Origin: an uncultured Actinomycetota bacterium
Lineage (GTDB): Bacteria > Actinomycetota > Humimicrobiia > Humimicrobiales > Humimicrobiaceae
Length of the DNA stretch: 64,000 nt
Direction: 5' to 3'
Assembly: GCA_964423265.1 (NCBI GenBank)
Contig: CAYREF010000003.1
Coordinates: forward strand, 1,912 to 65,911
Shown one piece after another: positions 25,648 through 39,446 of this stretch (positions are counted from its first letter, which is position 1; the number at the start of each line of letters is the position of its first letter). A model generated the notes under the pieces. The model was not told the DNA's origin and searched no databases. It saw nothing but the letters and a program-made list of their open reading frames with translations. The position numbers and the translations under genes were made by a program.

Positions 25648-26535
25648 ATGAAAGACAAGCTTAGTGGAGTGTTTGTTCCAACCATTACCCCTTTTGTAGG
25701 AGATGAAGTACAGTATGCTAAATTAGAAGAGAACTTAATAAAATTAAATAAGTCTTCTATTACCGGCCATCTGGCGCTGGGTTCTAATGGAGAATACAAA
25801 AGCCTTACCAGAGATGAGCAGTTGAAGGTATTGGAAGTGTTTGTTAAAAACAAAGGTGATAAGGTAATAATGGCTGGCACAGGTTGCGAATCAACCACCG
25901 AAACCATCCAGCTTAGCAAGGAAGCTGAAAGGATTGGAGCAGATTTTGTAAGTGTTTTAACTCCAAGTTATTTTAAAAAAATAATAAATGACGAAGTACT
26001 TATAAATTATTATACAGAGATAGCAGACAACATAAATATACCTCTGCTAATTTATAATGCTCCCGGTTTTACCAGCGGAGTAACAATTTCTGCAAAGGCT
26101 GTGAGGAAACTAGCCCGGCATCCTAATATAGTGGGCATGAAAGATAGTTCTAAGGCTGGAATTATGGGTTATATTACTGCCACTATGGATATTGATGATT
26201 TCTATGTTCTAGCTGGTTCTATTAACTTCTTTTTTACAGGGCTTGTTTGTGGAGCTGTTGGCGGGGTTTTATCATTGTCAAATGCTATACCTAATCTTTG
26301 CTGTAAATTGTATAATTTATACTTAAATGGCAAAATTGAGGAAGCAAAACGCTTGCACTTAAAGCTATTTCAGGTTAACGGAAAGGTATCCGGGGCTAAT
26401 GCTGTAAGCGGGGTTAAAGCTGCTGCATCTATCTGCGGGTATTTTGGTGGGGAGCCTAGAAAGCCATTAGCAGCCCTGGCTCCGGAAGAAAAAAAAGGAC
26501 TTAAGGAATATTTTAAGCAAGAAGGATTGATTTAA
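25648..26535 (+). CDS. DHDPS/N-acetylneuraminate-lyase-family class I aldolase or dehydratase (paralogue 1)
   Basis: TPF...GSNGEY motif and Schiff-base lysine context (IVGMKDSSK). Only 18 bp after aspS, with an AAGGAGG RBS. Confidence 0.75.
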   Translation: MKDKLSGVFVPTITPFVGDEVQYAKLEENLIKLNKSSITGHLALGSNGEYKSLTRDEQLKVLEVFVKNKGDKVIMAGTGCESTTETIQLSKEAERIGADFVSVLTPSYFKKIINDEVLINYYTEIADNINIPLLIYNAPGFTSGVTISAKAVRKLARHPNIVGMKDSSKAGIMGYITATMDIDDFYVLAGSINFFFTGLVCGAVGGVLSLSNAIPNLCCKLYNLYLNGKIEEAKRLHLKLFQVNGKVSGANAVSGVKAAASICGYFGGEPRKPLAALAPEEKKGLKEYFKQEGLI

Positions 26536-27510
26536 ATGGCAAAGGTATTGTTGGGACAAAAAATACACAAGGATGCAATAAATTTTCTCAAAAACAAAGG
26601 TTTTGAGGTCATTGTTTCCAGCTCTCCGGAGGATGAAGTGGTGAGAAAGCAAATTAAAGATATTGATGGCCTTATTGTAAGGACTGCTACCAAATTAAGC
26701 AGAGAGACAATATTGGCGGCAAAAAGGCTGAAAGTTATAGGAAGAACAGGAAAAGGGGTGGACAATGTAGATGTAAAAGCTGCTTCAGAAAAAAATATTT
26801 TCGTGTGTAACGCCCCTGAAGCCAATATTGAGACAGTGGCAGAGCATGCTATTGCCTTTATGCTTGTTCTTGCTAAAAATTTGAAAGCCATGGACAATGC
26901 AGTAAGGGGCTTAAGGTGGAAGATAAGGAATAACTATATTCCCATAGATATTTCTGGAAAAATTTTAGGATTAGTTGGTTTTGGCAATATTGGCAGGGCA
27001 ATGGCCAGAAAATGTTATAATGCATTTAACATGGATATAATCGCCTATGATCCTTTTTTACCTGAAGGTTTAGAAGTTAATTTCCCCTTTAAGCTTAAAG
27101 GTAGTTTGGATGAGGTATTTATGGAAGCAGACTTTGTGTCCCTGCATATTCCTTATACTAAAGAGAATCATCATCTGGTTGGAAAAAACCTTTTGAGTAA
27201 AATGAAGAAAGGCTCCTTTTTGATAAACACTTCACGCGGAGGAATTGTAGATGAAAAAGCATTGGCTGGTATTCTAAAAGATGGAGGCATAGGCGGGGCT
27301 GCTTTGGATGTATTTGAAAACGAGCCTCCTAAAAAAAAGAACCCGCTATTAGGTATTGAAAGCGTTATCCTTACACCGCATTCTGCAGCCTTAACCGGTG
27401 AAAGTTCCAGGAGAATGGCTATGCATGCAGCAGAAGGAGTAACAGATGTTTTAGAGGGGCGAAAACCCCGGTGGGTATTTAACAGGGATAGCATTAAAGC
27501 AGGCAAATAA
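26536..27510 (+). CDS. D-isomer-specific 2-hydroxyacid dehydrogenase (paralogue 1)
   Basis: GLVGFGNIGRAMARK Rossmann motif and catalytic His in TPHSAALT. Its start abuts the upstream stop. Confidence 0.8.
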   Translation: MAKVLLGQKIHKDAINFLKNKGFEVIVSSSPEDEVVRKQIKDIDGLIVRTATKLSRETILAAKRLKVIGRTGKGVDNVDVKAASEKNIFVCNAPEANIETVAEHAIAFMLVLAKNLKAMDNAVRGLRWKIRNNYIPIDISGKILGLVGFGNIGRAMARKCYNAFNMDIIAYDPFLPEGLEVNFPFKLKGSLDEVFMEADFVSLHIPYTKENHHLVGKNLLSKMKKGSFLINTSRGGIVDEKALAGILKDGGIGGAALDVFENEPPKKKNPLLGIESVILTPHSAALTGESSRRMAMHAAEGVTDVLEGRKPRWVFNRDSIKAGK

Positions 27511-27573
27511 TTTTTGCATTTTTTTAAACGGATAATTTATATAGTATGCTGTTAATCATATAAGGAGGTTAAA

Positions 27574-27969
27574 ATGAAATATGTAAAAAATATACAAGAT
27601 TTAAAGGCTGATATTGATCCCAGGTCCTTAAGGGATAGGGTAAAAAAGCGGGACAAAGCTATATTAAGAGACACAAATTATGTAATTGATCCTGAAGATG
27701 AAGGTTGTGAGTCAAGGAGGCTAACTCTAGGCCACACCATAATTTATCCTACCGGTACTACTACGGGGCACTCACATGATGATATGGAAGAAGTATACTA
27801 TGTAGTAATGGGTAAAGGAGTTATGGTTGTTGGAGATGATGAGTATGATATTAGGCAGGGTGATGCTCTATACGTGCCTCCTGGAGAGTTTCATACAACC
27901 AAGCAAAGGGGAAATTTACCCCTTATCGTGGTTTGGGTAACTTGCAAGGTTGATCCTGATGAAAGATAA
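27574..27969 (+). CDS. Cupin-domain protein with cPGI-like metal-site motifs (possible sugar or sugar-phosphate isomerase)
   Basis: TTGHSHDDMEEVYY (TxGHxHx4EEvY) and PPGEFHTT (PPxxxH); 131 aa. Confidence 0.55.
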   Translation: MKYVKNIQDLKADIDPRSLRDRVKKRDKAILRDTNYVIDPEDEGCESRRLTLGHTIIYPTGTTTGHSHDDMEEVYYVVMGKGVMVVGDDEYDIRQGDALYVPPGEFHTTKQRGNLPLIVVWVTCKVDPDER

Positions 27970-28001
27970 GAAATAAAATTTTTCGAATAGGGGAGAAAGC
28001 T

Positions 28002-29444
28002 ATGATAAGAGAAAAATTACTAATTGGTGGAGAATGGGTAAAAGCAGAAGCTAAGGACACCATGGAGGTAATTAATCCGGCTTATGGAGAAGTTTTTGGG
28101 GAAGTCCAAAAAGCCCGCAGGAAAGATGTATGTAAGGCTATTAATGCTGCCGGTGAAGCATTTGGTAAATGGTCTAAACTAACTCCTTTCGAAAGGGGAG
28201 AGTACCTCAGGAAAGCCAGTGACATGGTATATGAAAGAGTAGATGAGATTGCCAAACTTATGACCCAGGAAGAAGGGAAGCCTCTAAAGGAAGCTGCAGG
28301 AGAAGTTAAAAAAGGTGCAAAGATTTTAGATTATTATGCCGAAGAGGGTGAAAGAGTGTATGGAAGGATTATTGCCAATGAGGATAAAAATATGGAAAGC
28401 AGAGTAATATATCAACCGATTGGAGTGGCAGGAGCTATTTCTCCCTGGAATTATCCCATTGAATTGCTTGCATGGAAAGTTGGAGGTGCCCTTGCTTCTG
28501 GCTGTACTGTAGTTGCAAAGCTGCCATCAGAAACGCCTTTATCTCCTCTTGCTTTTATTAAATGCCTTGTGGATGCAGGTGTACCTGATGGGGTAGTAAA
28601 TGCAATTACCGGTTCTGGCTCCGAAGTGGGCCCAATACTTTTTAATAGCAAAAAAGTAAAAAAGATTGCTTTTACAGGCTCAACCAGTACTGGAAGGGAA
28701 GTTCTAAAGGGTTGTGCGGACACATTTAAAAAGGTATCTGTAGAATTAGGCGGAAGTCTTCCCATGGTCATATGCAAGGATTGTAATCTTGATAAGGCTG
28801 TAGAAGGAGCTGTAAGAAGATCATTTAGGAATATGGGCCAGATATGCATAGCTGTAAACAGGATTTATGTGGATGCGGCTATATATGAAGATTTTATCGA
28901 AAAATTTGCAGAACAGGCAGGAAAGCTAACTATTGGCGACGGATTAAAAGAAGATTGTAATTTGGGACCTATGTGTACTACCGGTGGGGTAAAAACAGCA
29001 AAAAGGCATATAGAAGATGCAGTATCAAAGGGGGCTAAAGTTGCTTGCGGCGGGGGAAAGCCCTCTGCAGAAAAGTATAAGAAAGGTTATTATTTCCAGC
29101 CCACAATTCTCCGTGATGTTGACCATAGTATGCTGGTTATGCAGGAAGAGACCTTTGGTCCGGTAGTCGGGGTCATGTCTTTTAAGACATTAGAGGAAGC
29201 TGTAGAGCTTGCCAATGATTCTCCTTACGGGTTGGCCGCAATTGTATTTACTGAAAGCTTAAGCATAACAAACAGGCTATCGCTGGAAATAGAGGCTGGA
29301 AATGTAGCTATCAATAATGTGGATGCAGGCGTTATAAATGCACCTTACGGGGGATGGAAAGAAAGTGGCTATGGGCATGAGCATGGGCCTGAAGGTTTAT
29401 ACGAGTATCTGTTAATTAAGCATATAAGGCTCCGTTATCTCTAA
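28002..29444 (+). CDS. NAD(P)+-dependent aldehyde dehydrogenase (hydrolytic ALDH, paralogue 1)
   Basis: General-base motif ELGGSLP, catalytic Cys in GQICIAVNRIYV, NAD site FTGSTSTG. Confidence 0.85.
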   Translation: MIREKLLIGGEWVKAEAKDTMEVINPAYGEVFGEVQKARRKDVCKAINAAGEAFGKWSKLTPFERGEYLRKASDMVYERVDEIAKLMTQEEGKPLKEAAGEVKKGAKILDYYAEEGERVYGRIIANEDKNMESRVIYQPIGVAGAISPWNYPIELLAWKVGGALASGCTVVAKLPSETPLSPLAFIKCLVDAGVPDGVVNAITGSGSEVGPILFNSKKVKKIAFTGSTSTGREVLKGCADTFKKVSVELGGSLPMVICKDCNLDKAVEGAVRRSFRNMGQICIAVNRIYVDAAIYEDFIEKFAEQAGKLTIGDGLKEDCNLGPMCTTGGVKTAKRHIEDAVSKGAKVACGGGKPSAEKYKKGYYFQPTILRDVDHSMLVMQEETFGPVVGVMSFKTLEEAVELANDSPYGLAAIVFTESLSITNRLSLEIEAGNVAINNVDAGVINAPYGGWKESGYGHEHGPEGLYEYLLIKHIRLRYL

Positions 29445-29479
29445 AGATAATTTGCTAATTATAAGCAAGGAGAATTCAA

Positions 29480-31024
29480 ATGGCAAATAAATATATAATT
29501 GGCATAGATATAGGTACTACTGGCTGTAAATCGATTATGGTTGATGCAAATGGCCAGCTGATATGCTCTGCAACAGAAGAATACCCCCTGTATACGCCTA
29601 ATCCCGGCTGGGCAGAACAGAATCCTGGCGACTGGTGGGATGCAACAGTTAAAACTTTACAAAGAATCATTAAAGAAAGTGCGGTCCCTACAGAAGAGAT
29701 AAAGGGAATAGGTCTTTCTGGACAAATGCATGGCTTGGTACCATTGGATAAGGATGGGGAGGTTGTAAGGCCTGCATTTCTTTGGAATGACCAAAGGACA
29801 GAAAAACAGTGCAGGGAAATTATTGCTGCTGCAGGCGGAGAAAAAGAATTATTAAAGTATACCAACAATAGCATGCTTCCAGGTTATACCGGCGGAAAGA
29901 TACTTTGGCTAATGCAAGAAGAGCCCGGAAATTTTAAAAAGTCAAAAATTTTTTTGAATCCAAAAGATTATATTAGGTATAAGCTTACTGGAAAATTTGC
30001 TACTGAAGTATCAGATGCCTCGGGGACTGGGTTATTTGATGTGGAAAATAGAAGATGGAGTGAAGAGCTACTAGAAATTTTAAAAATCCCTAAAAAGCTA
30101 CTGCCGCAGTGCTATGAGTCTCCCGAGGTTACTGGTTATGTAACAGTGGAAGTATCTACATTGGCCGGCCTTAAAGAAAATACTCCAGTAGTCGGGGGAG
30201 GGGGAGACTCTGTTGTACAAACTACCGGAACCGGCCTTATAAACGAGGGGATATTAGGGCTAACCCTTGGCACTGCAGGAATTGTAGCTATGGGGCTAGA
30301 AAGATTTAAGTTTAATTCGACTGGAAAGCTACAAATATTTTGTAATAATGCCCCAAATAAATGGCATATAATGGGGGTAACTTTGGCTGCAGGAGGGTCA
30401 TTTCATTGGTTTAAAAATAATTTATGCAAGCATGAAATAAGGGTGGCAGAAAAAACAGGCCAGAGTGTTTTTGAAATAATAAATAAAAGTATTGAAAAGC
30501 AAACAGAACCAGGGAGTAAAAATCTGGTATTCTTACCTTATTTAATTGGTGAAAGATGTCCTTACCCTGATCCAAATGCCAAAGGTGTTTTCGTGGGATT
30601 AACCTTAAGGCATACCCATGCAGACATGGCCAGGAGTGTAATGGAAGGTGTAGGTTTCAGCCTAAAACAGGTTTATGATTTAATAATTGATATGGATAGA
30701 AATCTTGCTGTAAACGAGATACGGACTTCTGGAGGAGGCTCTTCCAGCCTTCTTTGGAGGCAAATTATTGCAGATATTTTCCAACTTCCGGTAAAGACTG
30801 TTAGTGGAAGCAAAGAAGGCGGAGCTTACGGAGCGGCATTAGTTGCTGGAACCGGCTGTGGCATATGGTCTAGCATGGAAGAAGCAACCAAGGTGCTGAA
30901 GGTAGAAACAGAGTTGTTACCAGATAAGAAAAATAAAGGAATTTATACTCAACTGTATGGGGTTTATGCCAAACTTTACAACAATTTAAAAGAAGGTTTT
31001 GACGCTTTATCAACTATTAAATAA
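29480..31024 (+). CDS. FGGY-family carbohydrate kinase (xylulokinase/gluconokinase-like)
   Basis: N-terminal IGIDIGTTGCKS, FGGY N- and C-domains, GGGSSS. Confidence 0.8.
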   Translation: MANKYIIGIDIGTTGCKSIMVDANGQLICSATEEYPLYTPNPGWAEQNPGDWWDATVKTLQRIIKESAVPTEEIKGIGLSGQMHGLVPLDKDGEVVRPAFLWNDQRTEKQCREIIAAAGGEKELLKYTNNSMLPGYTGGKILWLMQEEPGNFKKSKIFLNPKDYIRYKLTGKFATEVSDASGTGLFDVENRRWSEELLEILKIPKKLLPQCYESPEVTGYVTVEVSTLAGLKENTPVVGGGGDSVVQTTGTGLINEGILGLTLGTAGIVAMGLERFKFNSTGKLQIFCNNAPNKWHIMGVTLAAGGSFHWFKNNLCKHEIRVAEKTGQSVFEIINKSIEKQTEPGSKNLVFLPYLIGERCPYPDPNAKGVFVGLTLRHTHADMARSVMEGVGFSLKQVYDLIIDMDRNLAVNEIRTSGGGSSSLLWRQIIADIFQLPVKTVSGSKEGGAYGAALVAGTGCGIWSSMEEATKVLKVETELLPDKKNKGIYTQLYGVYAKLYNNLKEGFDALSTIK

Positions 31025-31033
31025 GAGTTAAGG

Positions 31034-31663
31034 TTAGAAATACTTTTTTACAGCTTCTAGATGTTCAATTATCAAGGCTGAAGCTTCGTTAGGGTGGTTT
31101 TTTAAAATTTCTTCTATTATCCTATTATGGTATTTAAGGCTTTCTTTTAGCTTAGTTCTAAAGCCCTTAGTATAGGATAAGAGCAAAATATTAAATGAAT
31201 TATTTATATGCTTCAGGTAAGAATTTGCTGATGTTTCAAGAAGGTAAAGATGGAATTTTTTGTCTATTTCAAAATATTCGCTTGGATTTTTACCCTTTAC
31301 GGCTTGTTCAAATTTTTGCTTAAAATCCAAAAGTCTATCTTTTATGGAATTGTTAAGGTTTTCAGAAATTTTTTCTACTGCCAGGCTTTCAAAAGAGCCC
31401 CTTATTTCAAGAAGCTCGTAGAATTCCTGTTTTGAAATTTTTCGGACAAAAAAGCCTTTTCTAGGATGGTATTCTATAAGCCTTTCGTTCTGGAGGACTG
31501 ACAGAGCTTGTATTAAAGGAATCTTGCTTATACCCAGTCTTTCTGCCATTTTTTCCTGGATAATTTTTTCCCCGGGCTTAAGTAAGTCCTCAAGAATTAG
31601 GAGCTTAATTTTGCTGTAAGCCTGTTCACTTAAATTATTCTGCTTGATTTTGTTAATGTTCAT
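31034..31663 (-). CDS. GntR/FadR-family transcriptional regulator (FCD effector domain), paralogue A
   Basis: wHTH EKMAERLGISKIPLIQALSVLQNERLIEYHPRKGFFV followed by a helical effector domain. Confidence 0.8.
   Translation of the reverse strand: MNINKIKQNNLSEQAYSKIKLLILEDLLKPGEKIIQEKMAERLGISKIPLIQALSVLQNERLIEYHPRKGFFVRKISKQEFYELLEIRGSFESLAVEKISENLNNSIKDRLLDFKQKFEQAVKGKNPSEYFEIDKKFHLYLLETSANSYLKHINNSFNILLLSYTKGFRTKLKESLKYHNRIIEEILKNHPNEASALIIEHLEAVKKYF
31423..31582. repeat. 160-bp block identical to 32057..32216 (GntR HTH-coding segment); similarity continues at >90% to about 31640 and 32274
   Basis: Direct comparison of the two sequences. A second 49-bp identical block is at 31185..31233 and 31819..31867. 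Confidence 0.9.
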
Positions 31664-32294
31664 CTAAAAGATGTGACTCCTTTTTATGTTCTATATGGAC
31701 TTTCATTAATTTTAATGCTTCAGCCATTTCTTTTTTAAGTATTGCATTAATAATCTTTCTGTGGTAGTCCATGCTTAATTCAATTTTTGTCCTAAAGCCT
31801 TTGGTAAAGCAAAGAAGTAAAATATTAAATGAATTATTTATATGCTTCAGGTAAGAATTTGCTGATGCTTCAAAAAGAAAGTAATGGAATTTTTTATCAA
31901 CATCATAATATTTAATATAGTCTTTTTTTTCATTATATTTTTCGAAATCGCTTAAAAATTTCCGGAGTGTTTTTTTAACTCCCTCATTTAAATTGCCAAT
32001 TATTTTTTGCACTGCAAGGCATTCCAGGATTCTCCTTACGTCGATAAGGTCATAATATTCCTGTTTTGAAATTTTTCGGACAAAAAAGCCTTTTCTAGGA
32101 TGGTATTCTATAAGCCTTTCGTTCTGGAGGACTGACAGAGCTTGTATTAAAGGAATCTTGCTTATACCCAGTCTTTCTGCCATTTTTTCCTGGATAATTT
32201 TTTCCCCGGGCTTAAGCACGTCATCAAGAATTAGGAGCTTAATTTTGCCGTAAGCCTGTTCACTTAAATTATTTTGATTTATTTTTAAGTCCAT
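31653..32294 (-). CDS. GntR/FadR-family transcriptional regulator, paralogue B (tandem duplicate)
   Basis: The N-terminal HTH is nearly identical to paralogue A. The effector domain has diverged but keeps ANSYLKHINNSFNILLL. Confidence 0.8.
   Translation of the reverse strand: MDLKINQNNLSEQAYGKIKLLILDDVLKPGEKIIQEKMAERLGISKIPLIQALSVLQNERLIEYHPRKGFFVRKISKQEYYDLIDVRRILECLAVQKIIGNLNEGVKKTLRKFLSDFEKYNEKKDYIKYYDVDKKFHYFLFEASANSYLKHINNSFNILLLCFTKGFRTKIELSMDYHRKIINAILKKEMAEALKLMKVHIEHKKESHLLDEH
32057..32216. repeat. Second copy of the 160-bp identical block (see 31423..31582)
   Basis: Direct comparison. Confidence 0.9.
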
Positions 32295-32639
32295 ATTAGC
32301 TTTTTACATAATGCATTAGCTAAAAATAAAAGGCTTTTTTATTGATATATATTTTTTAGTATTGACATTATTTGCATACATTATACAATATTCATTAACA
32401 ACTTAAAATGTAAATTTTTAAAAAATCACTAAACATAGATTAAACAATAATTTTAAAGGGAAGAAGATAAATTTTTAAAATATTGTATACTGTATATGCT
32501 AAATAGGTTCCTTTGCCTGGTTTAGTATTTATTGATAGTAAAGAATTATAACTATAAAATTATTAACACAATGAGGTGAGATATAGAAAACCTACTTTGT
32601 TAATTTAAATTCCGTTGTAGAACCCAATTATTAGGATAG

Positions 32640-32885
32640 GAGGATGAATCTGATATACAATCCACAGTAAAAATAGTAGAATTCCAGGGGGATAGCACTG
32701 TGTTAACTTTAAAGCTTGATGATCCTGCTAATAGCGAAATATAGGTTACCACTTCAGTGGGAAGTGAAAGCTACAAGAGGAATGAAAAGTCCTGGCTAAA
32801 ATTTAAGCCAGAATTTGTGCACCTCTTTGATAAGGAAGAAAAAGCAATAATAAAAAGTCTGGGTATCGAAAGCATTATTTGCTAA
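32640..32885 (+). pseudogene. Decayed 3' remnant of a sugar ABC-transporter ATP-binding gene (MalK/MsmX-type TOBE domain) with an internal TAG
   Basis: A single frame reads EDESDIQSTVKIVEFQGDSTVLTLKLDDPANSEI*VTTSVGSESYKRNEKSWLKFKPEFVHLFDKEEKAI.... This matches the MalK C-terminus pattern (VEQLGNETQIHIQI...PERCHLFRED). There is no start codon and no ATPase domain upstream. Confidence 0.4.
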
Positions 32886-32947
32886 ACTAAAAATCAAAAG
32901 TGGTAAGCCGGATTTGGATTGCAAAAGAAATCTGGAAAGCTATAAAT

Positions 32948-33727
32948 ATGGGTAAAAAAAGAGACGCTCTATCATTTTTTAAACTAGATGGTAAAAAAGC
33001 AGTGGTAACAGGTGCGGGAAGAGGCCTGGGAAAAGAATTAGCAATAGGTCTGGCAGAAGCAGGAGCAGATGTAGCGTTAGTTGACAAGCTGAAAAAAGAA
33101 GCTTCCGATGGCTGCAAGCAAATAGAGGCAATGGGAAGGAATGCAATTGCCATTGAAGCGGATGTAAGCAAGGAGGAGGATGTAAAAGCTGCAGTTCATT
33201 CTATAAAAAAAGAATTTGGGGAAATAAACATTCTGGTTTGTAATGCCGGCATAGTTAGCTGGTCTCCAGCTGAGGAAATGTCTATAGAAGACTGGCAAGA
33301 AGTTATTGATGTTAACCTGACTGGTGTTTTCCTTTTTTGCAAATGGGTAGCAAAAGAAATGAAAAAACAGGGGGGAGGCAGCATAATTAATATATCCTCT
33401 ATGTCCGGAATTATAGTAAATGTTCCCCAAAAACAATGTCATTATAATGCTTCCAAGGCAGGAGTTAGCCATCTTACAAAATCATTGGCAGTTGAATGGG
33501 CTCCTTACAATATAAGGGTAAATGCAATCTGTCCCGGTTACATTATGACCCCTCTTTTGAAACTGGCGGATAAAAAGTACATAGATGAATGGACTTCATA
33601 TACCCCCCAGAAAAGGATACCTGACCCTTCTGAGTTTAAGGGCTTGTGCATATTCTTAGCATCAAGCGCCTCCAGTTATGTAACTGGTAGTGCTATTGTC
33701 GCAGATGGGGGATATAGTTTGTGGTAA
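32948..33727 (+). CDS. SDR-family oxidoreductase (KduD/gluconate-5-dehydrogenase-like)
   Basis: GKKAVVTGAGRGLGKELA and a YxxxK active site (YNASKAG). ATG at 32948 is preferred over the ORF-track start. Confidence 0.8.
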   Translation: MGKKRDALSFFKLDGKKAVVTGAGRGLGKELAIGLAEAGADVALVDKLKKEASDGCKQIEAMGRNAIAIEADVSKEEDVKAAVHSIKKEFGEINILVCNAGIVSWSPAEEMSIEDWQEVIDVNLTGVFLFCKWVAKEMKKQGGGSIINISSMSGIIVNVPQKQCHYNASKAGVSHLTKSLAVEWAPYNIRVNAICPGYIMTPLLKLADKKYIDEWTSYTPQKRIPDPSEFKGLCIFLASSASSYVTGSAIVADGGYSLW

Positions 33728-33766
33728 TTTTAAGCGTTTAATAATATTTTTAAAGGAGGATAAAAT

Positions 33767-35110
33767 ATGGCTGTTAATTCTAAGCTTAAATTCGGATTTA
33801 TAAACCTGGCTCTAGATTTTTTAGAAAAGGAAGATCTGGAAACTGCAACTAAATATGCGAATGAAGCAAAGGGATACCTGCAGGAAGAATTGGGGATATC
33901 TATAGTAGAGTCAGCTTCTTCGGTGGATAGTAGGGCTAAATCCAGGATTGCATGGCAAAAATTTAAGGAAGAAAATGTTGATGCAGTAGTAATATTTAAT
34001 GGCACTTTTAGTACTGGAGAAGTGGCTACCGAAGTTATTAGAAATCTGGATGTACCTTACCTTATTTGGGGAATAGAAGAATTTGCCATAAAAAAACATA
34101 ACTTTACTGGCTCTATGGTAGGAGTTTTGCCTTTGGGAACTGTGTTTAAGAATTTTGGGAGGCCTTTCTCCTTTGCTTATGGAAATGTTGGGGGCGGAAA
34201 ACCCAAGAAAAATGTTAATAAGTTTGTAAAGGCTGTGGAGGCTATTTCTTATTTAAATGAAGCCACTATCGGCGTTATAGGAATGAGGCCTGATGGCTTT
34301 GAAATTTCAGATTTTGATGAGCTGGCTATAAAGAATAAGTTTGGAACTACCATTACAAAAGTATCCATGTACGGTTTTTCTAAAGTAATTGAAAGTGTAA
34401 CTGAAAAAGAAATAGACAAGGATATGGAGCAACAGAAGAAAATTTTTAATATTGCTGATAAAGATCTTGAGGAAGCCAGGGGAATTTCAAAGGTTTATCT
34501 TGCTACTAAAAAAGCTGTTGAAGAAAACAACTTAAATGCATACGCTCCGGATTGCTGGCCTGAATTGAGAGATATTGATTGTACCCCGATTTGCCCGGCA
34601 AACGGAAGATGCAATGCGGAAGGAGTAATGGCATCTTGTGAATGTGATGTTGACGGGGCTTTAACCTTAATGTTGCAACATGTTTTGGCTGAATCAACCC
34701 CATGGTTTGCGGATTTTGTAAATATTATAGAGGAAAATGATACTTTACTTTTCTGGCATTGCGGTAATGCCCCCTATAATTTATCAACGGATAAACCAAA
34801 AATAGAAAAGATTTTTGGCGGTCTCTCACAGGTAGCTGCTCTAAAAAGCGGAGTGGTAACAGTTTGCAGGCTTAATTCTATAAGGGGCGAATATGTATTG
34901 CATGCTGGCATTGGGGAAGCAGTTGAAACAGAGCCGCTGCTAAAAGGCAGCAACCTTTCAATAAGGATGGAGGGCGGCAATTTAGAATTTGTGGAATCAT
35001 TGCTAGATAATGGAATCCCCCACCATAATGGATTGGTTTACGGGGATATCCTGGAAGAATTAGAAGAATTTGCAAAACTCATGCAAATACCTTTTATTGT
35101 AAGTAAATAA
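33767..35110 (+). CDS. Sugar isomerase of the L-arabinose/L-fucose isomerase (AraA/FucI, COG2407-like) family
   Basis: 447 aa; the N-terminal Rossmann-like region and C-terminal part (WHCGNAPYN...HAGIGE) loosely resemble AraA. Family-level call only. Confidence 0.45.
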   Translation: MAVNSKLKFGFINLALDFLEKEDLETATKYANEAKGYLQEELGISIVESASSVDSRAKSRIAWQKFKEENVDAVVIFNGTFSTGEVATEVIRNLDVPYLIWGIEEFAIKKHNFTGSMVGVLPLGTVFKNFGRPFSFAYGNVGGGKPKKNVNKFVKAVEAISYLNEATIGVIGMRPDGFEISDFDELAIKNKFGTTITKVSMYGFSKVIESVTEKEIDKDMEQQKKIFNIADKDLEEARGISKVYLATKKAVEENNLNAYAPDCWPELRDIDCTPICPANGRCNAEGVMASCECDVDGALTLMLQHVLAESTPWFADFVNIIEENDTLLFWHCGNAPYNLSTDKPKIEKIFGGLSQVAALKSGVVTVCRLNSIRGEYVLHAGIGEAVETEPLLKGSNLSIRMEGGNLEFVESLLDNGIPHHNGLVYGDILEELEEFAKLMQIPFIVSK

Positions 35111-35126
35111 TTTTTAAGGAGGAAAT

Positions 35127-36602
35127 ATGAAAAAGTATAAACTATTTATCAATAATCAATGGGTAGATGCTGAAGATAAGAAAACCTTTGTATCTAAATG
35201 CCCTGCTACAGGCGAAGAACTTGCAGAACTGGCCCTGGCCAAGGAGAAGGATGTGGACAAAGCAGTAGCGGCAGCAAGGGCGGCTTTCCCTAAATGGGCT
35301 GCAACCAGCGGAGATGACAGGGCAAACTTGATGATGAAAGCTATGGATATAATGAAAAAAAGACATGATGAGCTGGCAGAAATAGAAGCAAAAGATGTGG
35401 GAAAACCAATAAAGGAAACTCAAGATGTTGACATTGAATATGCTTTAATGGCTATGGAGTATTTTTCGAATAAGGCCAGACAAATAAGGGGAGATGAAGT
35501 TCCAATTGAAGGCGGAGAAACTTTATGTTATGAGACCTGGGAACCTTATGGAGTAGTTGCCTCAATTATCCCATGGAATTTTCCTGTCCATATAGCTACC
35601 AGAACCATTTGTCCTGCACTTTCAGCAGGTAATACCGTTGTACTAAAAGCTTCCTCGCTCGCACCAATTACTTGCCAGATATTGGGTGAAATATTTTTGG
35701 AAGCAGGATATCCGGAAGGTGTGCTAAACATTGTTTCAGGATCAGGTAGTATAACAGGCGAGGCTATGTTAGTACATCCTGATATCGACATGATATCATT
35801 TACTGGATCTTCTGCAGTTGGTAGGCGGTGCATGCAGGCTGCAGCTGAATCAAATCTTAAAAAAGTTATACTCGAGCTTGGCGGCAAAGGTCCATTTATA
35901 GCAACTAAGGACTGCAGGCTAAGCGATGCTGTAAATTCTCTCATACTGGGTTTCTGTTTCATGCAGGGTGAAGTTTGCTGTGCTTCTACCAGATTATATG
36001 CACATGAGGATATTTATGATGAATTTGTGGACTTATTGGTAAAAAGGTGCCAGAAGATAAAACTTGGGGACATAATGGATTCTGGAACGCAAATGGGTTC
36101 GCTAATAGATGAAGACCGGCTAAAGGCTGTGGACGGCTATGTTAAAAGAGCCGTAAAAGACGGCGCTAAGCTGTTATGTGGTGGCGAAAGGGTAACTGAT
36201 CCTCCTATGGATAAAGGATATTACTACCCACCCACAGTACTTGAAGTTGATGATAACAAGATGGAATGTGTACAGGAAGAGATATTTGGTCCTGTAGTTA
36301 CGGTTATGAAATACAGAGATTTTGATGAAGCCCTAAGGCTTGCCAATGATACGGTTTATGGCCTGGGAGCAACAGTGTGGAGTGAAGATGTTAGAAAACT
36401 AGTTAAAGCTACCAGGACTTTTGATGCGGGCATAGTTTGGATGAATACAAATGTAATGTCTAAGATAGAAGCTTCTTATGGCGGAAACAAAATGAGTGGA
36501 CTTGGAAGAGAAGGTGGAGAAGTAGGTCTGATGGAATACCTCAAATGCAAAAACAATGTTCTTTTCCTGGGAGAAGAAGGTAACTATTACGATTTTAAAT
36601 AA
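35127..36602 (+). CDS. NAD(P)+-dependent aldehyde dehydrogenase (hydrolytic ALDH, paralogue 2)
   Basis: ELGGKGP, catalytic Cys in GEVCCASTRLY, FTGSSAVG. Confidence 0.85.
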   Translation: MKKYKLFINNQWVDAEDKKTFVSKCPATGEELAELALAKEKDVDKAVAAARAAFPKWAATSGDDRANLMMKAMDIMKKRHDELAEIEAKDVGKPIKETQDVDIEYALMAMEYFSNKARQIRGDEVPIEGGETLCYETWEPYGVVASIIPWNFPVHIATRTICPALSAGNTVVLKASSLAPITCQILGEIFLEAGYPEGVLNIVSGSGSITGEAMLVHPDIDMISFTGSSAVGRRCMQAAAESNLKKVILELGGKGPFIATKDCRLSDAVNSLILGFCFMQGEVCCASTRLYAHEDIYDEFVDLLVKRCQKIKLGDIMDSGTQMGSLIDEDRLKAVDGYVKRAVKDGAKLLCGGERVTDPPMDKGYYYPPTVLEVDDNKMECVQEEIFGPVVTVMKYRDFDEALRLANDTVYGLGATVWSEDVRKLVKATRTFDAGIVWMNTNVMSKIEASYGGNKMSGLGREGGEVGLMEYLKCKNNVLFLGEEGNYYDFK

Positions 36603-36620
36603 ATAATGCTGTATTTATAA

Positions 36621-36667
36621 GAAAAAAAAAGGGGGCTCCTTGCTGGAGCCTCTCCTTTGTAATTTTT
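36621..36667 (+). terminator. Probable intrinsic terminator after ALDH-2 (A-run, GGCTCC-ttgct-GGAGCC hairpin, T-rich tail)
   Basis: Seen: aaaaaaaaagggGGCTCCttgctGGAGCCtctcctttgtaatttttt. Confidence 0.4.
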
Positions 36668-36714
36668 TAAAAATTACTATATGATTGAAGCCACTTTATA
36701 GAAGGATGATATAG

Positions 36715-37683
36715 ATGGGCGATGAGAGATTAAAAGTAGTATTTACTGATTTTGATTTTAATGATGTAAATATAGAAAAAGAGGTATTAGGGGAAACAAA
36801 CTGCGATATAGTTGAACTCCAAACCAAGGATGAAGATAAGCTAGCTGCAGAATGCGCCGATGCTGATGGATTAATAGTCCAGTATGCACCTATAACTGAA
36901 AAAGTTATAAACAGCATGAAAAAGTGTCAAGTTATATCCAGGTATGGAATTGGTGTAGATACTATAGATTTAGCCGCAGCTTCCAAAAAAGGAATACATG
37001 TATGTAATGTCCCTGATTATTGTCTGGATGAAGTTGCAGACCACAGCCTGGGGTTGATGTTCTCTTTGGGCAGGAAAATTGTAGCTCTGGACAATGCAGT
37101 GAAAAATGGCAAGTGGGATGCAGTTGGCGTAGCCCGGCCTATTTTTAATTTTAAGAGGCTGGTACTGGGAATTATCGGATTCGGAAAAATACCCCAGCAC
37201 TTATACCCTAAAACAGAACCCCTTTTTGGTAAAACTTTAGTATTTGACCCCTATATATCCAATGAAATAAAGGAAAAATTTAGCCTTAACATGGCCAGTT
37301 TTTACGAGATACTCCTGAACTCAGATTTTATATCTATACACTGTCCTTTAAATGATGCTACTTACCATATGTTTGATGAACGGGAATTCCAGCTTATGAA
37401 GCCAACTGCCTTTTTAGTTAATACGTCAAGGGGTGGTATAATAAATACCAAAGCCCTTTATCTGGCATTGCTTAACGGGCATCTGGCGGGGGCAGGCTTG
37501 GATGTTTTGGAAGAAGAACCTCCGGGAATGGACAATGAGCTGGTAAAGATGGATAATGTGATAGTAACCCCTCATGCTGGATTTTATTCAGAGTCCTCAA
37601 TTGAGGATTTAAAATATAAGACGGCTCAGAACATAGTTAAAATTTTAAAAGATGACCAGCCGCAAAACGTGGTAAATAAATAG
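36715..37683 (+). CDS. D-isomer-specific 2-hydroxyacid dehydrogenase (paralogue 2; atypical GxGxxG)
   Basis: Catalytic and NAD-binding domains with TPHAGFYS. The dinucleotide motif reads GIIGFGKIPQ. Confidence 0.75.
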   Translation: MGDERLKVVFTDFDFNDVNIEKEVLGETNCDIVELQTKDEDKLAAECADADGLIVQYAPITEKVINSMKKCQVISRYGIGVDTIDLAAASKKGIHVCNVPDYCLDEVADHSLGLMFSLGRKIVALDNAVKNGKWDAVGVARPIFNFKRLVLGIIGFGKIPQHLYPKTEPLFGKTLVFDPYISNEIKEKFSLNMASFYEILLNSDFISIHCPLNDATYHMFDEREFQLMKPTAFLVNTSRGGIINTKALYLALLNGHLAGAGLDVLEEEPPGMDNELVKMDNVIVTPHAGFYSESSIEDLKYKTAQNIVKILKDDQPQNVVNK

Positions 37684-37706
37684 GATTTTGAAAGGAGAAA
37701 TATATT

Positions 37707-38888
37707 ATGGATATCCCTGAAGGTGTAATAGTTGCAATGCTTACACCGTTTGATGAAAAAGGCAGAGTAGACGAAATTGAAGTCAGAAGGTTTGTGGACT
37801 TCTTAATCAACAAGGGAGTTGACGGGTTATTTCCGGTTGCTTCCTGCGGTGAATATACTCATATGGATATGGGGGAACGAAAATTCTTAATTGATGTGGT
37901 GGTTGATGAAGCAAATGGAAGGGTTCCTGTAATTCCAGGATCCGGAGCTACTTGCTACCACAAATCTATAGATATAGCTAGCTATGCAAAGGATAAAGGC
38001 TGTGAGGCGGTAGTTTTACACGGCCCTTATTTTTTCCAGAATGCCAAGGAAGTTGTTGAAGGGCACTTAAGGAAAGTTGCAGAATCTGTGGATATACCCA
38101 TCTTCCTTTATAACATTCCTTTCTTTGCCAATGAAATTACTCCTCAGATGGCTGAAAAGCTGTGTGGGATGCCTAATGTGGTGGGTATTAAAGATTCTTC
38201 AGGTAATATGGTAAATGTTATGAATCTTTTAGAGATGACTAGAAAAATAGATCCGGATTTTAGGGTACTAGTAGGTGCAGAAGAGATAATGCTTCCTGCA
38301 CTCATGATGGGAGGCAAGGGTTGCATGACGGCAACAGCTGGAATTTTACCTGAATTTATGGTAGGAATTTATGAAAATTTTAAAAATAAGAATATCCAGA
38401 ACGCTTATAATCTGCAATTTGCCATACTTTCCCTTATAAGGGAAATGAAGAGTGTAAATTTCCCCCAGGGTTTTAAGGAAGCATTAGATTTAAGGGGTAT
38501 AAAGGTAGGCCCTCCCAAGATGAATTATCCCGAACAAGAACTGGCCAAAATTGCTGACCTCAAGACAAGGCTAGAAATGGAAATGAAAAACCTGCTTGAG
38601 AGGTATTTTACGGGAGTTCCGCTAAACTATAGAGCAGACAAGCAATTTCTACAGAAATTCAGCTATCCAGCAGAAACTGCTCCTGAACAATCCGGGGAAA
38701 AGAAATACAATGATTGTTTAGTTTGTGGAATGTGCGAGGGAGATGTTGAGTGCAAGGTGGTCCCTTGTGACAGCATGCAGGAAAAGCCTTTAAGTAATTC
38801 TAAAACTGAAAAAATATCCAATGACATAGATGAAGACCAATTAAAAGAAATTATTACAAAAACTATAAAAAAAGTTCTAGGCAACTGA
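37707..38888 (+). CDS. DHDPS/NAL-family class I aldolase (paralogue 2) with a ~90-aa C-terminal tail: Cys cluster plus terminal amphipathic helix
   Basis: Core motifs VASCGEYTHMD and VVGIKDSSG. The tail reads ...CLVCGMCEGDVECKVVPC...EDQLKEIITKTIKKVLGN*. Confidence 0.7.
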   Translation: MDIPEGVIVAMLTPFDEKGRVDEIEVRRFVDFLINKGVDGLFPVASCGEYTHMDMGERKFLIDVVVDEANGRVPVIPGSGATCYHKSIDIASYAKDKGCEAVVLHGPYFFQNAKEVVEGHLRKVAESVDIPIFLYNIPFFANEITPQMAEKLCGMPNVVGIKDSSGNMVNVMNLLEMTRKIDPDFRVLVGAEEIMLPALMMGGKGCMTATAGILPEFMVGIYENFKNKNIQNAYNLQFAILSLIREMKSVNFPQGFKEALDLRGIKVGPPKMNYPEQELAKIADLKTRLEMEMKNLLERYFTGVPLNYRADKQFLQKFSYPAETAPEQSGEKKYNDCLVCGMCEGDVECKVVPCDSMQEKPLSNSKTEKISNDIDEDQLKEIITKTIKKVLGN

Positions 38889-38907
38889 GTAGAAAGGAAA
38901 ATAAAAG

Positions 38908-39171
38908 ATGAATAAGGCAATTGGACTGATTGAAACAAGGGGTCTGGTAGGTTCTATTGAAGCAGCAGATGCCATGGTAAAAGCAGCCAATGTAAAGCTC
39001 ATATCCAAAGCATATGTAGGCGGAGGATTGGTTACTGTAGTGGTTGAAGGTGATGTAGGTGCAGTTAAATCTGCAGTGGACGCAGGCAGTGCTGCTGCTA
39101 AAAGAGTAGGGGAATTAATTTCTGTTCATGTGATTCCAAGACCCCATGAAGATACCTCAAAAATACTTTAA
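38908..39171 (+). CDS. Bacterial microcompartment hexameric shell protein (BMC-H; PduA/EutM/CcmK family)
   Basis: [80 protein letters not shown] aligns to PduA along its whole length (the (I/V)HVIPRPH end is diagnostic). The RBS is 20 bp after the aldolase stop. Confidence 0.9.
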
Positions 39172-39446
39172 ATGAGCCTTTTTTTTGAGTGCTTCTGTTT
39201 ATTGAATAAACAAAATAATTATGATAATATCAAAATTGGATACTCTGTTTGGTTCGTGATTAAAGTTAAGTTTTGTGCCAACAATTTAACTTTGGAAGCT
39301 CAAACTTTACCTGTGGCGTAAATGCCCGGGTTACCGGGACTTATAAAACAGATAGGAGAGCATCCACCTGCTGAGGCAGGGCATAAAAACCTTAGTAATT
39401 GCGGCCAAACGGGGTATCCATTTTATTAAAATGAATTTTTTTTATT

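Follow-up and report, generated by a model that had tools for sequence, protein, structure and literature searches.

A block of thirteen genes between aspS and alaS

The DNA examined here is a stretch of 64 kb (the window) from an uncultured bacterium of the actinomycetotal family Humimicrobiaceae (contig CAYREF010000003.1), in which a block of thirteen genes lies between the housekeeping genes aspS and alaS. The left half of this block comprises, on the plus strand, the genes of a protein of the dihydrodipicolinate synthase/N-acetylneuraminate lyase (DHDPS/NAL) family (DHDPS1), a D-2-hydroxyacid dehydrogenase (2HDH1), a cupin, an aldehyde dehydrogenase (ALDH1) and an FGGY sugar kinase, followed on the minus strand by two GntR/FCD regulators (GntR1 and GntR2). 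The right half, or module 2, comprises the genes of a short-chain dehydrogenase/reductase (SDR), a sugar isomerase (ISO), a second aldehyde dehydrogenase (ALDH2), a second hydroxyacid dehydrogenase (2HDH2), a second DHDPS/NAL protein (DHDPS2) and, as the last gene, a shell protein of bacterial microcompartments (BMCs), BMC-H. All thirteen genes of a preliminary description made from the sequence alone were found in their places, and their families agree with the list of open reading frames (ORFs) and with Pfam. Profile scans were run on 29 ORFs of the window, covering 22 kb around the block and ten flanking ORFs. The most informative feature of the locus is the C-terminal extension of DHDPS2. 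The preliminary description had rightly listed the BMC-H gene at the end of the block but had overlooked the encapsulation-peptide-like extension on the adjacent aldolase, a protein of 393 amino acids (aa) and not of ~295 aa.

A predicted long-form class I aldolase with a conserved C-terminal extension

Both DHDPS proteins of the block pass the PF00701 gathering cut-off of 22 bits (Table 1). Among 62 long-form homologues, no variation was seen at three sites of DHDPS2, namely the Schiff-base lysine K162, the catalytic tyrosine Y135 and the motif G48-E49-Y50; K162 and Y135 align with what we take to be K161 and Y133 of Escherichia coli DapA. The AlphaFold model of DHDPS2 (pLDDT 83) is a confident TIM barrel, which was matched by Foldseek to YagE, DapA and NanA with TM scores of 0.83-0.88 normalised to the target; these matches span ~295 residues at 27-28% identity, YagE being the best of them. 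The predicted chemistry is of the class I pyruvate aldolase or lyase type. Cysteines 47, 83, 99 and 206 of the barrel are 90-100% conserved in the long-form family, C47 lying within the active-site S-C-G-E-Y motif, and their conservation suggests redox sensitivity or extra metal ligation.

The canonical fold ends at about residue 298 and is followed by ~95 residues. This extension was aligned in 95 long homologues of 365-412 aa, in which the order after the barrel is a conserved helix with a YFPG...YP segment, a cysteine motif, a linker and a terminal helix. The cysteine motif was found in 89 of the 95 proteins; C340 is invariant and C337 and C343 are 97% conserved among the long homologues, and a fourth cysteine is present within 10 residues in 58 of the 95. 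The motif probably binds a metal or an Fe-S centre. The linker (residues 357-373 of DHDPS2) is disordered in the AlphaFold model (pLDDT <50) and, in the alignment, is of low complexity and varies in length and composition. It leads into an amphipathic helix formed by residues 376-392 of the 393 (DQLKEIITKTIKKVLG), which was modelled with a pLDDT of ~84. The helix follows the pattern hydrophobic-x-x-hydrophobic-hydrophobic-x-x-hydrophobic-hydrophobic-(K/R)-x-hydrophobic, which reads LKEIITKTIKKVL in DHDPS2; this pattern occurs within the last 30 residues of 86 of the 95 homologues and elsewhere in only 5. The mean hydrophobic moment of the family is 0.65 in the tail versus 0.36 in the linker, and the tail of the window protein has a value of 0.62.

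A linker followed by a terminal amphipathic helix of ~15-20 residues is the usual build of BMC encapsulation peptides, and from this sequence pattern together with the gene context we infer that the terminal helix of DHDPS2 is an encapsulation peptide. A HMMER search with the extension among 1.8 billion representative proteins returned 13 hits, the seven inspected ones being fragments or variants of the same family. As far as sequence comparison reaches, the extension is restricted to the long DHDPS family and is not seen on other enzymes or alone.

Linkage of the long DHDPS to shell genes

The BMC-H gene starts 19 nt past the DHDPS2 stop codon, close enough for co-transcription. Its product carries KAAN and PRPH edge motifs and scores 116 bits against the EutM model, the cut-off of which is 133 bits. 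Loci of relatives (designated L001 and so on) were fetched via the long DHDPS, and the window proteins were compared with them by tblastn. The long form was found near shell genes in four different arrangements. A BMC-H gene lies directly downstream of it in the window and in L001, L002, L003, L026 and L027, and in L069 the long DHDPS is followed by BMC-H-2HDH-GntR. In a second clade, five tandem BMC-P genes adjoin it, either divergently or co-directionally, in L020-23, L005, L008, L030, L031, L047, L049 and L050. In L024 (769-13466), a complete metabolosome locus is located ~1.5 kb downstream of the long DHDPS, beyond DUF386 and DeoR genes; it contains the genes of two BMC-P, a PduS-like protein, BMC-T, a class II aldolase, BMC-H, a phosphotransacylase (PTAC), an aldehyde dehydrogenase of BMC type (AldDh), another BMC-H and another BMC-T, while genes for HpcH and Eda aldolases and for a KDG-kinase-like PfkB protein lie upstream of the long DHDPS. 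To count this linkage, the long family was delimited by at least 55% identity and the short relatives by less than 55%, and de-replicated clusters with at least 8 kb of flank were compared. Shell genes were present in 8 of 15 long-form clusters versus none of 20 short-DHDPS loci (Fisher p=2.7e-4).

The loci of relatives showed some other features. Four different aldolase families are brought together in L024. The five BMC-P (EutN_CcmL) genes of L020 (8334-9793; also L005, L008, L030, L031 and L047-L050) are mutually divergent, with no BMC-H gene within 10 kb, and represent an unusually high number of pentamer genes; their neighbours encode DUF386, a short DHDPS, an SDR, an enolase-superfamily dehydratase, URO-D, a sugar ABC transporter and GntR. 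L075 (44-4239) contains a gene with an IlvD/Edd-like tail (by eye), a more distant, tail-less DHDPS of 314 aa, PTAC and AldDh, and the N-terminus of the PTAC, MNDQLIRKITEQVLAEL, resembles an encapsulation peptide; this locus may show, independently, a BMC core supplied by a DHDPS-type aldolase. In the fused gene order of L054 (11136-14550), the long DHDPS is followed by a gene resembling zinc-type alcohol dehydrogenases (by eye), an SDR and a 459-aa AldDh, which is only 29% identical to the BMC AldDh of L024. Lastly, an orphan 87-aa BMC-H, 78% identical to that of the window, lies at 10001-10264 of L112 and L113, between a GAF-ANTAR regulator and a glutamate synthase operon; no other BMC gene was seen within 8-10 kb on these Actinobacteria-labelled contigs, which end there on one side.

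Conservation of the block in relatives

The block is preceded by ruvB-queA-tgt-yajC-secD-secF-recJ-relA-MBL-hisS-aspS and followed by alaS-ruvX-mltG-methyltransferase-U32 peptidase, so that the Bacillus-like housekeeping order previously described for both flanks is borne out, as is the 18-nt spacer between aspS and DHDPS1 with its AAGGAGG ribosome-binding site. The 275-nt spacer before alaS has the length given in the preliminary description but is not empty, since a 6S RNA gene sits inside it. The regulators had been called divergent, which holds with respect to module 2; they are otherwise in tandem on the minus strand and convergent with the left half.

The block had been read as an inserted accessory island with duplicated enzyme sets, and a look at the aspS-alaS neighbourhood of relatives had been proposed as a check. 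It occupies the same site, between aspS and the 6S RNA gene followed by alaS, in five related loci from metagenome-assembled genomes (MAGs), namely L001, L002, L003, L009 and L026, and the left flank with aspS is shared by L002, L003, L009 and L026. The gene order is aspS-DHDPS1-2HDH1-(another FGGY)-GntR-ISO-ALDH2-2HDH2-DHDPS2-BMC-H-6S-alaS in L002, L009 and L026, and ABC transporter-SDR-ISO-ALDH2-2HDH2-DHDPS2-BMC-H-6S-alaS in L001; L003 has only aspS-DHDPS2-BMC-H. By these gene orders, the left half of the block is fluid among relatives. The aspS and alaS products of the relatives are only 62-75% identical to those of the window, and yet identity is 87-97% for BMC-H (L001, L002 and L003), which is the best conserved gene of the block, and 84-91% for ALDH2 (L001, L002 and L009); the block therefore appears to be old, vertically retained and under strong constraint (purifying selection). 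Its base composition is native: GC at third codon positions is 0.32 in the island genes versus 0.35 in the flanks, where the range of single genes (0.26-0.39) spans the island value, and codon positions 1 and 2 account for the slight excess of the island in total GC. No integrase, transposase or other mobility gene was detected among the block genes by Pfam scans. The shared site, this composition and the lack of mobility genes speak against an insertion.

Nor did the duplicated sets stand up to comparison. The enzyme pairs share 26% (DHDPS), 33% (2HDH) and 35% (ALDH) identity, which excludes a recent duplication, and both sets are found in one operon elsewhere: L042, L044 and L054 have a single co-directional string (ABC ATPases)-SDR-ISO-ALDH2-2HDH2-DHDPS1-2HDH1-DHDPS2. 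Since this string occurs in a sister lineage, the two apparent modules are best read as one conserved set that was split or rearranged in the clade of the window. Annotations of close homologues name Candidatus Humimicrobiaceae or unclassified Actinomycetota MAGs, and on these comparisons the cluster is a lineage-conserved trait of Humimicrobiia-type Actinomycetota and not a recent insertion. What looks like an island would then be a stable trait of an uncultured lineage from anoxic sediments.

Other genes and intergenic elements

The features of the locus are listed in Table 1.

Table 1. Genes, protein motifs and intergenic elements of the aspS-alaS region (window coordinates)
Feature	Coordinates	Strand	Evidence
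aspS, left housekeeping flank	23821..25629	+	Pfam tRNA-synt_2, GAD, OB anticodon-binding domain
DHDPS1, DHDPS/NAL-family class I aldolase or dehydratase, 295 aa (predicted)	25648..26535	+	PF00701, 156 bits
2HDH1, D-2-hydroxyacid dehydrogenase, PGDH/glyoxylate-reductase type	26536..27510	+	PF02826, PF00389
Cupin, 131 aa	27574..27969	+	Cupin_2
ALDH1, non-acylating aldehyde dehydrogenase, SSADH/KGSADH type	28002..29444	+	PF00171
FGGY sugar kinase, xylulokinase-like	29480..31024	+	FGGY_N, FGGY_C
GntR1, GntR/FCD regulator	31034..31663	-	PF00392, PF07729
GntR2, GntR/FCD regulator, divergent from module 2	31653..32294	-	PF00392, PF07729
Best promoter-like site, TTGACA-16-TACAAT	32362-32389	+	11/12 consensus positions
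17-nt inverted-repeat pair I3, ATACATTATACAATATT / AATATTGTATACTGTAT	32376-32392 / 32479-32495		94% complementary
3' remnant of MalK-like ABC-transporter ATPase gene, last 72 codons	32640..32855	+	tblastn/blastn
SDR oxidoreductase, gluconate-5-dehydrogenase/KduD type	32948..33727	+	adh_short_C2
ISO, FucI/AraA-superfamily sugar isomerase	33767..35110	+	Fucose_iso_C, weak (34.6 bits, cut-off 29.3)
ALDH2, non-acylating NAD(P) aldehyde dehydrogenase	35127..36602	+	PF00171
GC-rich stem-loop, 9-bp stem with 6 GC pairs	36631..36653	+	112-nt gap ALDH2-2HDH2
2HDH2, D-2-hydroxyacid dehydrogenase	36715..37683	+	PF02826, PF00389
DHDPS2, long-form DHDPS/NAL-family class I aldolase, 393 aa	37707..38888	+	PF00701, 215 bits, residues 5-269
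Cysteine motif C337-x2-C340-G-x-C343 of DHDPS2	38715..38735	+	Consensus KKYxDCxxCGMCxGD
Predicted encapsulation peptide of DHDPS2, C-terminal amphipathic helix 376-392, DQLKEIITKTIKKVLG	38832..38882	+	
BMC-H shell protein, 87 aa	38908..39171	+	PF00936, 99.5 bits
6S (SsrS) RNA gene	39239..39419	+	Rfam RF00013, 99.3 bits (gathering 46.4), model 1-187 of 187
alaS, right housekeeping flank	39447..42119	+	Pfam tRNA-synt_2c, tRNA_SAD, DHHA1

Upstream of DHDPS2 in module 2, the SDR gene was listed as an ORF starting with GTG at 32900, but the ATG at 32948 was preferred, as it matches the 259-aa orthologue in L001. L001, L042 and L054 have the SDR gene, which L002, L026 and L027 lack, and the best NCBIfam models of the SDR product remain under their cut-offs. 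ISO aligns over its full length to the model of the sulfoquinovose isomerase SftI, with 206 bits versus a cut-off of 700 bits; as this score is far under the cut-off, a role in sulfoglycolysis was not adopted. No relative of ISO was found in the PDB by sequence search, and its neighbourhoods in other phyla have in common only a conserved ISO-ALDH pair, which also occurs on a Spirochaetes contig, and generic sugar-uptake genes. In L110 (7924-12852), ISO and its adjacent ALDH lie next to an aldehyde:ferredoxin oxidoreductase gene, and in L111 (9088-13495) they are located behind a sugar ABC transporter, between two AP_endonuc_2 (xylose-isomerase-like) genes and URO-D; genes of the URO-D family recur in such sugar clusters (L111, L020). 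The closest PDB sequences of ALDH2 are of the betaine-aldehyde dehydrogenase and ALDH2 types. Both aldehyde dehydrogenases of the block resemble hydrolytic BADH/SSADH/ALDH2 types without an N-terminal extension, and their scores with the GucD model are 431 and 395 bits versus a cut-off of 770 bits. The PDB relatives of 2HDH2 are PGDH and glyoxylate reductase.

In the left half, DHDPS1 is always paired with 2HDH1 in the relatives, and 2HDH1 reaches no NCBIfam equivalog. The cupin has weak PDB relatives among cupin-type sugar-phosphate isomerases and DddK; an identification as KdgF-like was dropped, as the PDB sequence search gave no KdgF match. A copy of the cupin with 76% identity adjoins ISO in L052. 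The best NCBIfam models of ALDH1 are SSADH (493 bits) and GucD (431 bits), both under their cut-offs, and ALDH1 is confined to the window genome among the sampled loci. The FGGY kinase passes the NCBIfam XylB model TIGR01312 (524 versus 380 bits). GntR1 and GntR2 are 68% identical, their ORFs overlap by 11 nt, and by this resemblance they are a genuine tandem duplication, the sole true one in the block; their place is taken in L002, L009 and L026 by just one GntR gene, which differs from them and is encoded on the plus strand. The stretch cupin-ALDH1-XylB-GntR-GntR is an addition particular to the window genome.

Part of the 650-nt gap that precedes module 2 is taken up by the remnant of an ATPase gene. 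In tblastn, it matches residues 297-368 of the second of the ATPases encoded upstream of SDR in L001 (60% identity, 72 aa, E=2e-22), and in blastn it is 72% identical to the L001 sequence over 208 nt. An intact four-gene ABC transporter precedes SDR in L001, L027 and L042, and the window genome has therefore most likely lost a dedicated transporter operon. In the same region, the first arm of an inverted repeat and the -10 element of the best promoter-like site overlap, and the site and the repeat together (32362-32495) may form the promoter and GntR operator of module 2, although matches to the consensus in AT-rich DNA may arise by chance. The stem-loop between ALDH2 and 2HDH2 has no clean T-tract on the plus strand and could be an attenuator or an RNA-processing site.

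The 6S RNA gene is preceded by a promoter-like TTGAAT...TAATAT and was found at the equivalent position in L001, L002 and L026. In Bacillus subtilis, 6S-1 RNA presumably lies just downstream of aspS, and on this basis the block, which sits between aspS and ssrS-alaS, appears to split an ancestral aspS-6S arrangement.

Proposed function of the block

The families of the genes support the earlier reading of a carbohydrate or sugar-acid catabolic cluster with GntR/FCD regulators, and the aldehyde-handling step proposed with it is plausible. The assignment to a Weimberg/Dahms pathway was not upheld, as neither a sugar-acid dehydratase nor a lactonase is found among the thirteen genes, an SDR being the only candidate for the upstream steps, and the KdgD scores are 72-106 bits versus cut-offs of 278-374 bits.

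A shell gene (BMC-H) and a substrate-type enzyme (DHDPS2) are both present at the locus. We consider it moderately probable that the block is a BMC module of satellite type, whose pyruvate-dependent class I aldolase would set free a reactive aldehyde at the shell or within it. According to this model, a sugar imported by an ABC transporter (in the relatives) would be converted with the help of SDR and ISO into the aldolase substrate. DHDPS2, docked by its terminal helix to the BMC shell or inside it, would cleave a 2-keto-3-deoxy sugar acid into pyruvate and a short reactive hydroxy-aldehyde. Since the island has no dehydratase, the deoxy-keto acid would have to arrive ready-made, for example from unsaturated uronates, or be supplied by DHDPS1 or a distant enzyme. 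L-lactaldehyde or glycolaldehyde would be the most likely aldehyde product, glyceraldehyde, tartronate semialdehyde and hydroxypyruvaldehyde being other possibilities. Lactaldehyde is our first guess because of the PVM/MIC4-like class II aldolase locus of L024 with its HpcH gene, the FucI-like isomerase, and the occurrence of lactaldehyde as a known PVM intermediate. Either a BMC core encoded at another locus would deal with the aldehyde, or ALDH2 would do so together with the 2-hydroxyacid dehydrogenases; the products would be processed by ALDH2, 2HDH2 and the DHDPS1-2HDH1 pair. Genes for BMC-P, BMC-T and any acylating AldDh/PTAC core would be expected in other parts of the genome.

Several observations weigh against such a module. 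No BMC-P gene was found in the 64-kb window by tblastn with five divergent BMC-P queries (E<=1e-3), and EutN_CcmL gave no hit among the 29 ORFs scanned, nor did BMC-T, PTAC (PF06130) or a clearly acylating AldDh; as the window contains no further shell genes, a closed shell in this genome is assumed. The main BMC locus was sought via close homologues of BMC-H, and the matches lie in other assemblies or in unrelated loci (the SPU-like L028, the orphan L112). ALDH2, 2HDH2, ISO and SDR have no recognisable encapsulation peptide. Of the long-form loci with ample flank, about half are free of shell genes within 10 kb, which fits a dispersed, FRAG-like or satellite organisation without proving it. 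DHDPS2 is equidistant from DapA, YagE and NanA (~27% identity), so that its sequence gives no substrate, and the source of the 2-keto-3-deoxy substrate is left unexplained by an island without sugar-acid dehydratase.

A more specific proposal, which we put forward tentatively and hold to be somewhat less than evenly likely, is that the block represents an undescribed kind of BMC in deep-branching Actinomycetota (Humimicrobiia and relatives). Its signature enzyme would be a class I pyruvate aldolase of the DHDPS/NAL family with a cysteine-rich module, which may bind Fe-S or a metal, and with a C-terminal encapsulation peptide; its shell genes would be dispersed, a lone BMC-H gene adjoining the enzyme in the window and five BMC-P genes in a row adjoining it in sister lineages. 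If so, organelle-confined catabolism would extend to non-phosphorylated 2-keto-3-deoxy sugar acids.

Alternative explanations

The block could instead be an ordinary cytosolic sugar-acid operon, in which the tail of DHDPS2 serves oligomerisation, regulation or metal binding and BMC-H is an orphan without a role in the pathway. The single shell gene in 64 kb would agree with this, as would the hydrolytic type of both aldehyde dehydrogenases, the lack of PTAC among the scanned genes, the half or so of the long-form loci with no shell gene in their flanks, and the orphan BMC-H genes in unrelated contexts in related MAGs (L112, L113). We nevertheless regard it as unlikely, given that the long form, and never its shorter relatives, accompanies shell genes in four arrangements, that the tail has the full build of linker and amphipathic helix, and that the gene 19 nt past DHDPS2 is the best conserved of the block. 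Rather less likely still is an open scaffold (sheets of hexamers, tubes or a condensate) of BMC-H and the tagged aldolase, which would concentrate the enzyme with no closed icosahedral organelle being formed. In favour of it, the locus has no shell gene other than BMC-H in the clade of the window, and BMC-H proteins alone self-assemble as sheets and tubes. One report states that encapsulation peptides can drive condensation (PMC12339742). However, the sister lineages, in which the long DHDPS is paired with five BMC-P genes or with a complete locus, point to closed shells, and BMC genes are commonly dispersed over several loci (FRAG types, satellite loci; PMC8217296).

Two other explanations concern the origin of the genes and the identity of the aldolases. 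That the block is a recently acquired accessory island, with halves that arose by internal duplication or by two acquisitions for two substrates, seems highly improbable: its content between aspS and alaS does vary (DHDPS2 and BMC-H only in L003, cupin-ALDH1-XylB only in the window), the ATPase remnant attests rearrangement and the GntR pair is truly duplicated in tandem, but the position is kept across relatives with tRNA synthetase genes as diverged as 62-75% identity, the composition is native with no mobility gene found in the block, the enzyme pairs share just 26-35% identity, and other lineages hold both sets in one operon. The possibility that both DHDPS genes are paralogues of the lysine-biosynthesis gene dapA is given practically no credence. 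The dapA model TIGR00674 is indeed the best-scoring NCBIfam model for both, and DapA is among the top PDB sequence matches, but the scores of 164.9 bits (DHDPS1) and 170.9 bits (DHDPS2) are under the equivalog cut-off of 206 bits, DHDPS2 reaches no equivalog model at all, and neither dapB nor any other lysine-biosynthesis gene was detected in the block by Pfam scans. Moreover, both paralogues have a phenylalanine, invariant as F140 across the long family, at the position of what we take to be Arg138 of E. coli DapA, which binds aspartate semialdehyde. The view of the preliminary description that these are not DapA enzymes is thus retained, and a role in lysine synthesis is unlikely for hundreds of MAG entries that bear the name "dihydrodipicolinate synthase family protein".

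Comparison with known systems

In the searchable literature on microcompartments in connection with the DHDPS/NAL family or with Humimicrobiia, no description of the long DHDPS family or of a BMC of Humimicrobiia was found. The sole prior mention found is one sentence on a pfam00701 aldolase near MUF2 loci (PMC8217296, Supplementary Data 2), and the DHDPS/NAL family is not previously established as BMC cargo. BMC types are defined by their signature enzyme, and the known aldolase types have class II (pfam00596) or DeoC (pfam01791) enzymes acting on sugar phosphates. In function, the block would be closest to the aldolase-based metabolosomes (PVM, PVM-like, MIC4, MUF, ACI) and to satellite modules that bring a further substrate to an existing BMC, the class of the tagged enzyme being different. 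If the satellite-type module is real, organelle-confined metabolism would gain a third class of aldolase together with a non-phosphorylative route for sugar acids. The module would also offer a candidate aldehyde source for some of the many catalogued loci in which AldDh is present without an obvious signature enzyme, and a compact, sequence-defined C-terminal tag with a cysteine-rich module for cargo-loading tests.

A BMC main locus has been defined by one or more BMC-H genes together with one or more BMC-P (PF03319) genes, and a satellite locus by one or more shell genes, with or without enzymes, distal from the main locus (Sutter et al. 2021, PMC8217296). The window has a BMC-H gene and lacks a BMC-P gene. 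It likewise lacks the metabolosome core (acylating AldDh with an encapsulation peptide, plus PTAC/PduL), both parts of which lie near the long DHDPS in L024. Cysteine-rich BMC-specific extensions and satellite loci that add substrates have been described (Sutter et al. 2021, PMC8217296). Like the block, satellite loci or "EUT modules" have a shell gene and a substrate-specific enzyme; they lie away from the main locus and are thought to extend the substrate range, and they differ in that the DHDPS/NAL family is new there, and in the window genome the main locus is assumed.

Among aldolases outside BMCs, YagE/YjhH, KDG aldolase, L-KDF aldolase and NanA have the same fold and the same catalytic lysine and tyrosine as DHDPS2, in which a GAEE motif stands where NanA presumably has its sugar-binding GYDE motif; but these characterised enzymes share only ~27% identity with it and lack both the tail of 95 residues and a neighbouring shell gene. 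Weimberg/Dahms and oxidative uronate pathways likewise combine a DHDPS-family enzyme with an NAD(P) aldehyde dehydrogenase, an SDR and GntR; the island differs from them in lacking a lactonase and an IlvD/Edd- or enolase-type dehydratase (Pfam scans), and the KdgD and KGSADH equivalogs are not reached.

Within BMCs, a class I aldolase of pfam00701 was found mentioned near a BMC locus only for the MUF2 loci of Gemmatimonadetes. Compared by description only, they encode a separate protein with a cysteine-rich middle domain, a C-terminal encapsulation peptide and an N-terminal domain shared with the aldolase, so that the cysteine-rich domain and the peptide, fused to the aldolase in DHDPS2, are unfused there; phylum and locus organisation also differ. 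The ACI BMC of Acidobacteria resembles the block in its C-terminally tagged aldolase, its D-2-hydroxyacid dehydrogenase (pfam00389/02826) and its satellite loci, but its aldolase is of class II, its main locus includes a BMC-P triplet and it belongs to another phylum. All BMC aldolases of pfam00596 are reported to carry an encapsulation peptide at the C-terminus (Sutter et al. 2021, PMC8217296 Supplementary Data 2). The PVM, PVM-like and MIC4 systems of fucose and rhamnose use likewise have, in a sugar context, an aldehyde-releasing aldolase with such a peptide, and a gene set of PVM/MIC4 type lies ~1.5 kb from the long DHDPS in L024. Unlike them, the window has no AldDh/PTAC core or BMC-P, and whereas the PVM/MIC4 enzyme is a metal-dependent class II aldolase (pfam00596) acting on a ketose-1-phosphate, DHDPS2 is predicted to be a class I aldolase (PF00701) acting on a non-phosphorylated 2-oxo acid.

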